Of a DNA stretch of 64,000 bases, positions 49,990 through 55,499 are shown piece by piece. The number at the start of each line of letters is the position of its first letter. The first letter of the stretch is position 1. A program made the translations under genes and the position numbers. Origin of the DNA: Escherichia coli (lineage in GTDB: Bacteria; Pseudomonadota; Gammaproteobacteria; Enterobacterales; Enterobacteriaceae). Where the stretch lies: assembly GCF_003018115.1 (NCBI RefSeq), contig NZ_CP027457.1. The stretch is one strand, 5' to 3'. The notes beneath the pieces are model-generated. The model ran no database searches. It had not been told where the DNA came from and worked only from the letters and a program-made list of their open reading frames with translations.

Positions 49990-51279
49990 TTACAAAGTGA
50001 AAGAGAGACGTAGCGCCAGCGCAGCCAGCGTCACAAACAGCACAGGCAGGGTCATGATAATCCCTGTACGGAAGTAATATCCCCAGCTGATAGTCATATT
50101 CTTCTGCGAAAGTACGTGCAGCCAGAGCAGTGTCGCCAGGCTACCAATCGGGGTGATTTTCGGCCCCAAATCGCAGCCAATCACGTTGGCATAAATCATC
50201 GCTTCTTTGATAACGCCAGATGCCGTGCTGCCATCAATGGACAACGCGCCAACCAGTACCGTCGGCATATTGTTCATAATAGAAGAGAGGAAGGCGGTGA
50301 GGAATCCGGTGCCGAGCGTCGCGGCCCACAGGCCGTTATCCGCCAGCACGTTGAGTACGCCAGAAAGATATTCCGTTAATCCGGCATTGCGCAGGCCATA
50401 AACCACCAGATACATGCCGAGCGAGAAGATGACAATCTGCCAGGGTGCACCGCGCAGGACTTTACCCGTATTAATCGCATGACCGCGTTTAGCGACGACA
50501 AACAAAATCAGCGCGCCCACAGCTGCAATGGCGCTCACCGGAATGCCGAGCGGTTCCAGGACGAAAAATCCCACCAACAGAAGCAGTAAAACAACCCAGC
50601 CTGTTTTGAACGTAGCAGGATCTTTAATCGCTTCTGCGGGAGATTTCAGCAGCGCCATGTCGTAGTTCTGCGGAATATCTTTGCGGAAATAGAGATGCAG
50701 CATCACCAGCGTGGCAACAATCGCGGCGATATCCACCGGCACCATCACCGAGGCATATTCGCGAAAGCCGAGGCCAAAGAAATCAGTGGAAACGATATTC
50801 ACCAGGTTGGAGACAATAAGCGGCAGGCTGGCGGTGTCGGCAATGAATCCGGCCGCCATCACGAACGCAAGCGTCGTGCCTTTACTGAATCCTAAGGCCA
50901 GCAGCATGGCGATGACAATCGGCGTCAAAATAAGCGCCGCGCCATCATTGGCAAACAGGGCGGCAACGGCGGCACCGAGCAGGACAATCCAGGTAAACAG
51001 CAAGCGACCGCGTCCATTGCCCCAGCGTGAAACGTGCAGCGCCGCCCATTCAAAAAAGCCGGACTCATCCAGCAGCAGGCTGATGATAATGACGGCAATA
51101 AACGCAGCCGTCGCGTTCCAGACGATATTCCACACCACCGGAATATCGCCCGGATGTACTACGCCCGTAACTAACGCCAGTACCGCGCCGAGCGTTGCAC
51201 TCCAGCCGATGCCTAAACCTTTCGGCTGCCAGATAACCAATACAATGGTCAGGACAAAGATAGCGCCTGCCAGTAACAT
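49990..51279 (-). CDS. arsB: Arsenite/antimonite efflux pump ArsB
   Basis: ORF 49990..51300; start likely [11 protein letters not shown] giving 429 aa; polytopic membrane protein. Confidence 0.93.
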
Positions 51280-51333
51280 AATGCCTCCCGGATAAAACAC
51301 ATGTGAAAATCCATATGTGTTTAGCTAAATTTT

Positions 51334-51687
51334 TTAACTGCAAATGTTCTTACTGTCTGCGGAACAGTTTTGTCGGGCCAGGTTGTGGACAATCGCCTGA
51401 ACCTTTTCCTGTTCACATCGCCAGGCTTCATCAATAATTTTCGCCGCCCATGCTGGAATATGCGGCGATAAGCGGTAATGAACCCACTTACCTTGCTTGC
51501 GGTCCAGCAATAGCCCGCTTTCCCGAAGTAACGCCAGGTGGCGGGATATCTTGGGCTGCGACTGATCGAGGGCAGTGCAGAGATCGCAGACGCATAACTC
51601 TCCCAGTTCGCTGAGCAGTAAAACGATGCCCAGACGGGTTTCATCAGCAAGAATTTTGAACAATTGGATGGGTAACAGAAATGACAT
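51334..51687 (-). CDS. arsR: Arsenite-responsive repressor ArsR
   Basis: 117-aa ORF with metalloid-binding ELCVCDLC motif and wHTH. Confidence 0.94.
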   Translation of the reverse strand: MSFLLPIQLFKILADETRLGIVLLLSELGELCVCDLCTALDQSQPKISRHLALLRESGLLLDRKQGKWVHYRLSPHIPAWAAKIIDEAWRCEQEKVQAIVHNLARQNCSADSKNICS

Positions 51688-51838
51688 ATTGCGCTCCTGA
51701 TTGTTGCAGGTAGTGTCTCTCTTCGAAGCGGATAAGTCAAAAACATATATGACTTAACGAATATGTAAGTGTAGAGAAAGGTATAGGTGTGAATTTTGAG
51801 TTGGGTATTCATTTGAAAGGAGGTCTGGATCAGGACGT

Positions 51839-51925
51839 AAAAAAACCGACTTTGCGTCGGTTTTTACTCTTCAGCCTGAGTTGGTGGCTCTGGCCGGAGT
51901 GAGAATGCCCACATCTAACGGTTCA
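51839..51925 (-). ncRNA. agrB: AgrB-like small RNA (antitoxin sRNA of the dinQ type I TA locus), approximate
   Basis: First copy of a roughly 235-bp tandem repeat; minus-strand hairpin (aaccgacgcaaagtcggtt) plus 7-U terminator; position next to arsR as recalled for K-12. Boundaries approximate. Confidence 0.5.
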
Positions 51926-52070
51926 ATACTATTAGCCAGTGGCTAACATTGCAAGCGTTAGCGATTTCTTCAGCTGGAGAAGGGACAGTTTGCTATACAT
52001 GTTGGTGAAAGAGGATTTATATACGTTCATCGGGTCGCTGCCGTACCAAGCCTTGTCCGAATCCGGACGT

Positions 52071-52158
52071 AAAAAAACCGACTTCGCGTCGGTTTTTTTA
52101 CTCTTCAGCCCAGAGTTGGTGGCTCTGGCTGGAGTGAGATAGCCATCATCTAACGCAT
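52071..52158 (-). ncRNA. agrA: AgrA-like small RNA, second repeat copy, approximate
   Basis: Second tandem copy with the same hairpin plus U-run terminator on the minus strand; divergent from the LexA-box promoter. Boundaries approximate. Confidence 0.5.
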
Positions 52159-52218
52159 CAATGCTAATACCATACTGAAACTATTGCAAGGACGTGCTGG
52201 TTCTATAACCTGCATGTA

Positions 52219-52234
52219 CTGTATGATTATCCAG
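52219..52234 (+). promoter_or_regulatory. LexA (SOS) box, putative dinQ promoter operator
   Basis: CTGTatgattatCCAG fits CTGT-N8-ACAG with one mismatch; lies in the agrA/dinQ divergent region, with a tataac -10-like hexamer just upstream. Confidence 0.55.
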
Positions 52235-52311
52235 TTAGCTCTGAGGCATTTTCACTCTGGCAATGCGCTTGACATCCTCCACGCCCTAAAGGACGTGGAT
52301 TCCTGCTACGT

Positions 52312-53532
52312 TCAGGCTGTCGCCTGAATCATTTCGGTGGGTTCCTGCTTCAACGGGCGGCCTGACTGCACCATCCCTCCACAGGCAAGAACGGCGTGCC
52401 CCGCCGCTAAAATGTTACGAGCGCCGTTTACATCGGCGTTCGCTGTATATCCACATACCGGGCATCTGAATTGACTTTGTGACAGGCGATTTTCTTTCGC
52501 TGTATGACCACAGCACGCGCAACGCTGGCTTGTGTACGCTGGCGGAACAGCAAGCACCTGACCGCCACGCCAGAGCTGCTTGTACTCAAGCTGGCGGCGC
52601 ATTTCATACCAGCCCTGATCCAGTATCGAACGGTTTAAACCTGATTTTGCCCGGACATTGCGCCCCGGCAGGCTGACCGTACCCGATGCTGACTTTGACA
52701 TGTTGCTGACCTTCAAATCCTCAATGACTATCATTGCGTGGTTTTTGCTGACGGTCGTTGTGACTTTGTGAAGGTAGTCCCTGCGGATATTTGCGATACA
52801 GGAATGCAGTCGCTGTATTTTGCGTTTCTGCTTCTGCCAGTTGTTGCTGAATTTGACCTTGCGGCTTAACTGTCGCTGAAGTCTCGCCAGCTTCTTCTGG
52901 TTTTTCTGAAAACTGTTTACAGGCTCAAAGGCTGTGCCATCTGACAGCGTGGCGAGTTTAGCCACGCCAGCATCCAGCCCGACCATTGATGCTGAAGGGT
53001 GAACCGGAGTTGATACTTCACTTTCTGTCTGAATACTGATGTACCACTTACCGCAGGACTGGCTGACCGTGACATTTTTCACAACACCCGTGACCTGACG
53101 GCTATTCCGGTAGCGCATCCAGCCCAGTTTCGGCAGAAAAATACGGCTGTTTTCCTGATCGAGCTTAACGCCCTGCGGGTAGCGGAATGCATCATTCTGT
53201 CCCCGCTTTTTGAATCGGGGAAAAGCAGCCCGCTTCTGGAAGAAGTTTTTGTAAGCCCGCTCAAGGTCTTTCAGTGACTGTTGCAATGGCTGTGAGGGCG
53301 AATCTTTAAGCCATTGCGTTTCAGTGGCGTTTTTCCACTCAACCAGCCAGGAAGCCATTTTCCCGTAAGGGATGTATTTATTACCGGCCTCATGATTCTC
53401 ATTCTGACGTGCCAGAGCACGATTGAAAACGAAACGACATGCGCCTGCGAAGCGCCTCATTTCACGCTCCTGTTGACCACCGGGTCTTAACTGGAATTTA
53501 AATGCCTGTAGTCGTTTCATGGGCCAAATCAT
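52312..53532 (-). CDS. tnpB: TnpB (OrfB_IS605) RuvC-like RNA-guided endonuclease / accessory transposase protein
   Basis: 406-aa ORF (start may be Met5, [13 protein letters not shown]); RuvC-like acidic residues in [23 protein letters not shown]; zinc-finger CACCGH...CPVCGY. Confidence 0.85.
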
Positions 53533-53542
53533 ACTTTGGCCT

Positions 53543-53958
53543 ATGAAAAAAGAAACCGATATCCGACGCGGAAGGCATTGTGTTTTCCTGATGCATGTTC
53601 ACCTGGTCTTCGTTACTAAATACCGACGTCAGATTTTTGACTATGACGCGACAGAAAAACTACGCACTTACTTTTCAAATGTATGTGCTGATTTTGAAGC
53701 TGAACTGGTTGAAATGGATGGCGAACCAGATCACGTCCATTTGTTAATTAACTATCCTCCCAAACTGGCGATATCCAGTCTGGTAAACAGCCTCAAAGGC
53801 GTATCGGGTAGGTTACTGCGACGAGATCGACCAGATATTGCAGCCAGGTATTACTACAAAGCGTTTTGTGGAGTCCTGGCTATTTTGCCAGTAGCTGCGG
53901 TGGTGCACCAATATCCATCATCCGCCAATACATTGAACAACAGCAAACACCTGGTTAG
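53543..53958 (+). pseudogene. tnpA: IS200/IS605 Y1 (HuH) transposase TnpA, apparently frameshifted
   Basis: N-terminal HuH motif (HVHLVF, KYRRQ) and second HxH (DHVHLLI) in the ORF frame; conserved C-terminus LWSPGYFASSCGGAPISIIRQYIEQQQ is in another frame from about 53866, ending at 53958. The 175-aa track ORF (to 54046) is a frame-fusion artefact. Confidence 0.55.
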
Positions 53959-54015
53959 GTGGAAAACCGCACCTTATATCCCCGCCCTGAATGAACGGGG
54001 TTTTACGGCGCACCG

Positions 54016-54093
54016 GATAAAGCAATCATCGTTCTTGGGGCGTTAATTGCGCTGCTGGAACTGATCCGCTTTCTGCTTCAGCTTCTGAACTGA
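54016..54093 (+). CDS. dinQ: DinQ-like type I toxin peptide ORF (codons 3-27 present; no in-frame start codon)
   Basis: Encodes DKAIIVLGALIALLELIRFLLQLLN*, matching recalled DinQ from residue 3; upstream in-frame codons (TGFYGAP) contain no ATG/GTG/TTG back to a stop at 53992; convergent with gor. Confidence 0.5.
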   Translation, partial: DKAIIVLGALIALLELIRFLLQLLN

Positions 54094-54110
54094 TAGCGGA
54101 AACGTAATTA

Positions 54111-54139
54111 AGGGCTAAGAGCACACTACTCTTAGCCCT
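54111..54139. terminator. Bidirectional stem-loop between dinQ and gor
   Basis: Perfect 11-bp stem agggctaagag/ctcttagccct with 7-nt loop between convergent ORFs. Confidence 0.6.
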
Positions 54140-54146
54140 TTAACAT

Positions 54147-55499
54147 TTAACGCATTGTCACAAACTCTTCTGCCGCCGTTGGGTGAATGGCGACGGTATT
54201 GTCGAAGTCTTTTTTGGTTGCGCCCATCTTCAGCGCCACCGCGAAGCCCTGCAACATTTCGTCCATACCAAAGCCAATGCCGTGAATACCGACAATCTTC
54301 TCTTCCGGTCCAACGCACACCAGCTTCATGCGGCACGGCTGGCGGTGAGTGGTGACGGCGGTATACATCGCGGTGAAAGAGGATTTATACACTTTCACCT
54401 GATCGTCGCCGTACTGCTCGCGCGCCTGCGGTTCCGTTAAACCAACAGTACCAATCGGCGGATGGCTGAAGACCACGGTCGGAATGTTGCTGTAATCCAG
54501 ATGCTCATCCGGCTTGTTATTAAATAGGCGTTCAGAGAGGCGGCGACCCGCTGCAACTGCCACCGGTGTCAGTTCTACTGCACCCGTGTTATCGCCCACC
54601 GCGTAAATACCTTCAATATTGGTGTTTTGATATTTATCGACGACGATATAGCCTTTTTCGTTAGTTTTAACGCCAGCGGCTTCCAGGTTGATGTTGTCAT
54701 TGGCAGGCTCGCGACCAATCGCCCAAATCAGGCAATCCACCGTTTCACTGCGACCATCTTCCAGCTCCAGCGTCAGGCTGCCATCGGCATTTTTCACTAC
54801 CGCTTTCGGGATGGCGTTGGTGTGCAACTGCGGACCTTCGGCGTTCATCACTTCGACCAGCGTTTCAGAGATCATCGGGTCGAAGCTGCGCAGCGGCGCA
54901 TGTTTACGCACAAACAGATGCGTTTTCGCGCCGAGGCCGTTAATCACGCCAGCCAGCTCAACGGCGATGTAACCCGCGCCAACAACCGCCACGCGCTCTG
55001 GCAAAGCAGGAAGGGCGAAGAAGCCATCAGAATCAATACCGTATTCCACGCCCGGAATATCCGGGTGGCTCGGACGACCGCCGGTGGCGATCAGAATATG
55101 ATCGGCCGTGATGGTTTCACCGTTAACTTCCAGCGTTTTGGCATCAACGAAGCGGGCAAAACCTTTGATTACATCAACGTTATTTTTACCGAGCACGTTT
55201 TCATAGGAAGTATGAATACGGTCGATATAGGCGGTACGGCTGGCGATCAACGTTTCCCAGTTGAATTTATTGATAGTGGTATCGAAACCATAATCCGGAC
55301 CGTACATGTGGATCGCTTCACGGATTTGCGCCGCGTGCCACATCACTTTCTTCGGTACGCAGCCGACGTTCACGCAGGTGCCGCCCAGCTCTTTGGCTTC
55401 AATCAGTGCGCATTTCTGGCCGTACATAGCCGCGCGGTTGATGGAGGCGATACCGCCGCTGCCGCCGCCGATGGCGATGTAATCATAGTGTTTAGTCAT
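54147..55499 (-). CDS. gor: Glutathione reductase Gor
   Basis: 450-aa ORF with FAD-binding GGGSGG and redox-active CVNVGC motifs. Confidence 0.95.

Follow-up and report, generated by a model that had tools for sequence, protein, structure and literature searches.

A dinQ remnant without a start codon at the left end of an IS609 element in Escherichia coli

Organization of the arsR-gor region

The window analyzed here is a 64,000-nucleotide stretch of Escherichia coli DNA (contig NZ_CP027457.1 of RefSeq assembly GCF_003018115.1). It carries an arsB-arsR-agrB-agrA-dinQ-gor region in the orientation opposite to that of MG1655, whose gene order (gor-dinQ-agrA-agrB-arsR) was used to assign the two agr repeats to agrA and agrB. 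The numbering of the dinQ transcript was anchored on the published sequence elements 1-4 (PMC5066626), all of which matched, and places +1 at window position 52234. The features at and around dinQ are:

51837-51918, minus strand: agrB by position (the copy nearest arsR); Rfam RF02891 AgrB, 79.5 bits, E=2.9e-13
52069-52153, minus strand: agrA by position (the second agr repeat, beside the dinQ promoter); RF02891 AgrB model, 90.7 bits, E=9.7e-16
52217-52236, plus strand: LexA box of the dinQ promoter, TACTGTATGATTATCCAGTT; identical to MG1655 and overlapping the transcription start at 52234
52234-52268, plus strand: retained dinQ nt 1-35, including inhibitory element 1 (U16-C28); no mismatches to MG1655; fused to the right end of the insertion sequence
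52269-54016, minus strand (the top strand of the element is the minus strand of the window): IS609, IS200/IS605 family, 1748 bp; left end (LE) at 54016, right end (RE) at 52269
54016-54093, plus strand: dinQ remnant, codons 3-27 and the stop, no start codon; NCBIfam NF041472 toxin_DinQ, 52.3 bits (25 aa)
54017-54020, minus strand: TTAT target motif beside the LE (ATAA on the plus strand), equal to dinQ nt 202-205
54110-54140: hairpin terminator common to dinQ (plus strand) and gor (minus strand), 14 pairs by scan; the 3' end of the 331-nt dinQ transcript

By blastn, the MG1655 intergenic region matches the window as far as 52268, and the match resumes at 54016. Between these two points 165 MG1655 bases are missing, and 1747-1748 bp of foreign DNA are found instead. 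A simple insertion without loss of sequence was rejected on account of these 165 bp.

The resident IS609 element

The foreign DNA is about 97.7% (97.6-97.8%) identical to elements annotated as IS609. Its ends and target were defined by alignment with seven other copies that lie at five different chromosomal sites. At all five independent sites the LE reads ...CACCGG on the plus strand and is followed by ATAA (TTAT on the top strand), while the RE ends in ...GGATGTCAA at 52269 and terminates in TCAA. The element possesses no terminal inverted repeats and makes no target duplication; subterminal hairpins are found at both ends. Its internal features are:

52278-52299, minus strand: RE subterminal hairpin; DNA fold with a 9-bp stem, as for copy L004
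52312-53520, minus strand: tnpB (insQ), an intact gene for a 402-aa RNA-guided endonuclease; identified by ORF, RefSeq annotation and Pfam
53543-53958, plus strand: tnpA (Y1 transposase) pseudogene; one G lost after 53860, from alignment with the seven copies
53980-54000, minus strand: LE subterminal hairpin, with a T inserted at 53992 and a G-to-A change at 53994

Reading of the tnpB frame in the window revealed no internal stop, and its exact product is matched by the Pfam families HTH_OrfB_IS605 (PF12323), OrfB_IS605 (PF01385) and Cas12f1-like_TNB (PF07282). The tnpA gene call retains an HVH motif and a Pfam Y1_Tnp match, the frame is broken after 53860, and the RefSeq note on the gene is "frameshifted." By comparison with the intact TnpA of copy L007, the frameshift removes the C-terminal ~30 residues (GVLWSPGYFASS...RQYIEQQQTPG), a segment which in this family carries the catalytic tyrosine. 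By descent this tnpA encodes a Y1 transposase, and it is predicted to be non-functional. The LE hairpin folds at -8.0 kcal/mol in the window, compared with -13.8 kcal/mol in a typical IS609 copy, and the altered hairpin may add to the immobility of the element. Because of the broken tnpA together with the altered LE hairpin, this copy would be immobile and fixed in place.

In its length of 1748 bp, divergent tnpA and tnpB genes, subterminal hairpins and LE abutting TTAT, the element is a typical E. coli IS609. It is unusual in being accompanied by a 165-bp deletion of flanking DNA, whereas a simple peel-and-paste insertion makes none. A further peculiarity is the tnpB start codon, which is ATG in the window (53518-53520) and GTG in strain GF4-3 (described below) and in the seven other IS609 copies; substitutions specific to the window at 53520, 53521 and 53530 are clustered in the 23-bp region between the divergent tnpA and tnpB genes. 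Among the seven other copies, six (L004, L005, L006, L008, L009 and L010) have a tnpA annotated as a pseudogene, through internal stop, frameshift or truncation, and tnpA is intact only in L007. The tnpB gene is open in five of the seven and carries an internal stop in the other two; that TnpB outlives TnpA may be a general pattern in E. coli IS609.

Loss of the dinQ leader and start codon

Translation of DinQ starts at a GTG with an optimally positioned Shine-Dalgarno (SD) sequence, GGAG (PMC3567139). The message is translated only from the +44 transcript, the +44 processing of the leader serving to open the SD (PMC5066626). On the anchored numbering, element 1 spans U16-C28, element 2 G94-G106, element 3 U167-U178 and element 4, with the SD, A182-G187; the GGAG itself is G184-G187, the agrB site G88-A119, and the first two codons are GTG195 and ATT198. 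The deleted piece, nt 36-200, held the +44 processing site, elements 2-4, the agrB pairing site, the SD, GTG195 and ATT198. Of the leader switch only element 1 (nt 16-28) survives.

The locus shares with dinQ-agrB of E. coli K-12 (PMC3567139; PMC5066626) the arsR-gor site, the LexA-box promoter, the terminator and both agr genes; nt 1-35 and nt 202-331 match with 0-1 mismatches, and the 25 C-terminal residues are identical. It differs in lacking nt 36-200, with IS609 in their place, and with the processing site, elements 2-4, the agrB site and the SD-GTG-ATT start gone, dinQ cannot work here in the manner described for K-12. Both agr small-RNA genes are present, agrB being intact, and the agrB pairing site in dinQ has been deleted; the agrA and agrB RNAs would be left without a target.

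The coding end of the gene was examined by direct reading and translation. The frame DKAIIVLGALIALLELIRFLLQLLN, closed by its stop codon, occupies 54016-54093 and extends back to a TGA at 53992-53994; translation of 53992-54093 gives a stop, TGFYGAPDKAIIVLGALIALLELIRFLLQLLN and a second stop, the frame ending in ...LLQLLN and the stop at 54093. From this TGA to the stop codon (54091-54093) translation reveals no ATG, GTG or TTG in this frame, and the only in-frame starts admitted by table 11 are ATC 54025, ATC 54028, ATT 54046 and several internal CTG codons. The MG1655 gene reads GTG ATT GAT AAA GCA..., that is (M)IDKAIIVLG...LLN and a stop, and its first two codons are absent from the window. 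The Asp codon GAT of the remnant is completed by G54016, which is the terminal base of IS609.

An earlier note on this DNA, made from the sequence alone, had described a DinQ-like frame without an in-frame start, and translation together with the MG1655 alignment bears this out; the same two analyses rule out a miscounted frame or a hidden start codon. Comparison with the reference gene also shows that the upstream sequence of MG1655 is a different one, with SD, GTG and ATT in place. The proposal that reference dinQ might have the same upstream sequence as the window was rejected, MG1655, ETEC4088 and an O157:H7 strain all possessing GGAG-N7-GTG ATT before GAT AAA. The note's suggestion that the first two codons had been exchanged for sequence from the IS end was correct as far as it went, but the loss is not limited to them, since it takes in the whole 165 bp of dinQ nt 36-200.

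The note had also placed the LexA-box promoter on the far side of the IS, about 1.8 kb away, and it indeed lies 1.78 kb upstream of the ORF remnant. The promoter and nt 1-35 now abut the right end of the IS and read antisense into tnpB. Between the LexA box and the ORF are found the 1748-bp IS, a terminator-like hairpin on the plus strand (53310-53328) and tnpB, transcribed head-on. We surmise that the LexA-controlled dinQ promoter would still fire, into the IS right end and antisense to tnpB.

With the +44 site, the pairing site for agrB, the SD and codons GTG and ATT removed, the locus fits the first of the note's two options, an inactivated toxin. Judged from the sequence, dinQ is here very probably a 5'-truncated, non-functional remnant of an SOS-inducible type I toxin gene, in which IS609 has replaced nt 36-200.

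Residual expression and the RefSeq annotation

In every matching genome the RefSeq (PGAP) annotation has a 22-aa CDS that begins at ATC 54025 and is named "damage-inducible type I toxin DinQ"; Pfam PF28061 (DinQ) is recorded on this gene call. NF041472, the NCBIfam model, is just 22 positions long, with a cut-off of 30 bits; against it the 25-aa remnant scores 52.3 bits, the full MG1655 DinQ 54.0 bits and the 22-aa product 38.3 bits. So short a model accounts for the annotation, which need not imply expression. Upstream of ATC 54025 the anti-SD duplex amounts to -3.3 kcal/mol, compared with -6.4 kcal/mol at the native GTG site, and 41% of random 20-mers from the window reach -3 kcal/mol or lower. 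Because the SD match is at background level, the 22-aa DinQ looks like an artefact of the short family model.

The remnant is probably transcribed at some level, since tnpA points towards it and a scan found no recognisable terminator between the two. An in-frame fusion of tnpA to dinQ was considered and rejected: at its C-terminal end the original tnpA frame is that of dinQ, but two stops intervene (TAG at 53956-53958 and TGA at 53992-53994), and the ORF produced by the frameshift (53519-54046) does not share the dinQ frame.

The earlier note had offered two outcomes, inactivation or expression by read-through from tnpA with an unusual initiation. The first is the one that we retain, and the second is weak, given the closed frames and the background-level SD match. 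In its fullest form the second would have read-through from tnpA, or an outward promoter in the IS left end, supply a message on which a near-cognate start (ATC 54025, ATC 54028 or ATT 54046) yields a membrane peptide of 15-22 residues, free of LexA and agrB control. The annotated CDS is exactly such a product, at 38.3 bits above the cut-off, tnpA and the remnant are co-oriented and end at the common dinQ terminator, and the frameshifted tnpA ORF terminates at TAA 54044-54046, overlapping ATT 54046, which could allow termination-reinitiation. ATC and ATT can initiate translation at low efficiency in E. coli. With such starts, and with DinQ toxic already at very low induction (PMC3567139), trace activity is conceivable. 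The ORF is moreover undamaged in two long-diverged lineages, although its 75 nt are too few to tell constraint from chance. On the other side, there is no canonical start, the name given by a 22-position model reflects the surviving residues rather than expression, and the product would be 5-12 residues short at the N-terminus. An unregulated potent toxin would furthermore be counter-selected, but hundreds of assemblies carry this allele in stable form. We regard a working toxin as highly improbable, and absence of DinQ translation as the expected condition of this locus.

Origin of the 165-bp deletion

The tetranucleotide ATAA, with an expected frequency of ~0.0045 per position, is found at just two places in the 331-nt dinQ transcript, nt 36 and nt 202, and these are the two end points of the deletion. 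The same two positions are the only ones in each of three diverse intact alleles (MG1655, ETEC4088 and the O157:H7 strain). On the top strand the wild type reads tgcTTTAT^caatcac...(165 nt)...gcgTTTAT^gcgcattgcc and the window tgcTTTAT-IS-gcgcattgcc, the deleted piece spanning from one TnpA-type cleavage position to the other. Because both end points fall exactly at the only two TTAT motifs, the lesion appears to have been made by the site specificity of the transposon, which evidently shaped both junctions.

The most likely route comprises two steps. IS609 would have been inserted in the same orientation at both TTAT sites, for example by local transposition to the sister chromosome with retention of the first copy, and homologous recombination between the two copies would then have removed the intervening 165 bp. 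We favour this route because every step in it is well known.

A direct deletion by TnpA is also conceivable: starting from one IS copy, pairing of the LE guide with the second TTAT would be followed by TnpA cleavage there and at the IS end, and rejoining would excise the 165 nt. Each end point coincides exactly with a TTAT cleavage position, the transcript having no further TTAT on that strand, and TnpA recognises TTAT-type target motifs in trans during integration (PMC8612924). Nor was an intermediate with one or two IS copies seen. Insertions at nt 36 or nt 202 only were absent from the six complete genomes with a query coverage of 80% or more. Exact junction patterns gave no match in metagenome contigs, in scans run without a positive control that amount to a weak negative; an IS at nt 202 only would have CGGGTGATTG joined to TTGACATCC, and one at nt 36 only GCGCACCGG joined to ATAAACGCTTTC. 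For an old event, however, missing intermediates are uninformative, and two same-strand insertions followed by RecA recombination yield the identical product by well-known steps. A literature search on IS609 and its TnpB, on IS-disrupted dinQ and on TnpA-made deletions found nothing specific, and no report of such an adjacent deletion for the IS200/IS605 family. Direct excision by TnpA is thus the rather doubtful alternative, and two insertions with recombination the route that we prefer.

Distribution and age of the allele

The same junctions are present in five complete genomes of the O169:H41 type (ETEC) and in the divergent guinea-fowl strain GF4-3. The exact TnpB of the window is listed in 275 blocks of public assemblies in the collection index, and the 24 contigs read with it all displayed the gor-dinQ'-IS-arsR context. 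All five loci fetched for this TnpB carry both junctions; two of these, from draft assemblies (L015 and L016), are identical to the window over 50812-55020. An assembly artefact or a mutation private to one strain was ruled out by the identical junctions in other complete genomes and in the fetched public loci.

The IS copy of GF4-3 differs from that of the window at 46 sites, and its tnpA is frameshifted by another lesion, the loss of an A at 53615, so that tnpA has been frameshifted independently in the two lineages. By raw distance the two copies are not mutual nearest relatives, a finding that prompted the hypothesis of recurrent insertion. Independent insertions in the two lineages are disfavoured by the identical junctions, by the LE-loop changes (T insertion at 53992, G-to-A at 53994), which are shared by the window and GF4-3 and found in none of the seven other copies, and by the comparably diverged flanks (1.3-5% between the two alleles). 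The best fit to the data is one old event, after which the copies decayed independently and may have been transferred between lineages through recombination.

Two variations in the neighborhood were noted. GF4-3 (L003 988-1379) possesses one agr small-RNA copy rather than two, presumably the result of recombination between the agrA and agrB repeats. Strain F9792 (L001) is 99.9% identical to the window over 51700-54200 and shows ~26 differences in the adjacent ~400 bp covering arsR (51300-51700), which suggests a recombination boundary near arsR between F9792 and the window.

TnpB and its predicted guide

The omega RNA (reRNA) of TnpB comprises the 3' end of tnpB and the RE and ends in ~16 nt of RE flank, which act as the guide (PMC8612924). 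Applied to the window, the 20 nt flanking the RE (52249-52268, minus strand) would furnish a guide of 16-20 nt, GCGCATTGCCAGAGTG.... In wild-type dinQ (MG1655 dinQ nt 16-39) gcgTTTAT is followed directly by GCGCATTGCCAGAGTG..., identical to the RE flank of the window. The predicted target in wild-type dinQ is TTTAT plus GCGCATTGCCAGAGTGAAAA, and TnpB from this locus, if active, should cleave intact dinQ alleles.

Rfam reveals an HgcC match over 52259-52379 (minus strand) at 24 bits, far below the gathering score of 50. Other sub-threshold matches are to sot0042 (17.5 bits against 88; 52278-52439, minus strand) and RAGATH-18 (28 bits; 52342-52385). A curated model for the IS609 RNA seems to be absent.

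These features raise the question of whether the locus has been re-purposed. The SOS promoter, by directing antisense RNA over the RE and tnpB, could render the output of TnpB and its omega RNA damage-responsive, and TnpB, by cutting incoming wild-type dinQ, would protect the IS-bearing allele. In favour of this are an intact promoter and LexA box directly beside the RE, a tnpB that has stayed open in both old lineages whereas tnpA is broken in each (two of the seven other copies have a stop in tnpB), the match of wild-type dinQ to the RE flank after TTAT, and the weak HgcC match at the position expected for the omega RNA. But every step of this scheme is conjectural, a guide that matches the empty site is generic to every TnpB-bearing IS, and the Rfam match is far below threshold. 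As a gauge of domestication, the dN/dS of tnpB between the window and GF4-3 lineages is 0.54, based on only 23 differences, which suggests only mild constraint. We consider such re-purposing very unlikely. It is likewise unlikely that the TTAT-to-TTAT loss is the footprint of an adjacent deletion by TnpA and that the immobile IS behaves, in addition, as an RNA-guided drive against incoming intact dinQ. The dinQ remnant of this lineage is almost certainly dead, a loss of an ordinary kind.

Comparison with other dinQ lesions and precedents

Of 5426 complete genomes, 4604 match at least 80% of the dinQ transcript. In a spread sample of 30 complete E. coli genomes, four (the E11 type) match only dinQ nt 125-328. 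In E11 (L012 901-1104) dinQ is the immediate neighbor of arsC and lacks its LexA promoter and nt 1-124, with agrA/agrB and arsRB missing as well; it retains the SD, the GTG and the complete 27-aa ORF and is thereby a toxin gene with neither promoter nor antitoxin. In strain ZH177 (L011 1749-2567), with an IS1A beside arsR, an independent lesion has reduced dinQ to nt 249-331, a fragment annotated as a hypothetical protein of 15 aa. Both lesions differ from that in the window in their end points and agents. Since an IS1A lesion occurs in ZH177 and E11-type alleles in 4 of 30 genomes, loss or uncoupling of dinQ is not rare.

A precedent exists in K-12 itself, where chromosomal hok/sok type I loci have reportedly been inactivated by IS elements, in the account of Pedersen and Gerdes in Mol Microbiol in 1999. 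There, too, a small membrane toxin of type I has been silenced by an IS with its antisense RNA gene left behind. The elements at those loci are IS150 and IS186, while that in the window is IS609, and in the window the dinQ start and the whole leader have been physically removed, in a lesion bounded by the target motif of the IS.

The main value of the finding lies in annotation and in strain biology. The RefSeq label on a 22-codon fragment beginning with ATC means that counts of type I toxins based on annotation are inflated. The motif-to-motif deletion provides a small, clean natural example of a peel-and-paste element removing flanking DNA. The allele adds to the evidence that dinQ is dispensable and often damaged in nature, and it points to a lineage, including O169:H41 enterotoxigenic E. 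coli, that would be without functional DinQ while retaining agrA and agrB and an SOS promoter directed into a transposon.
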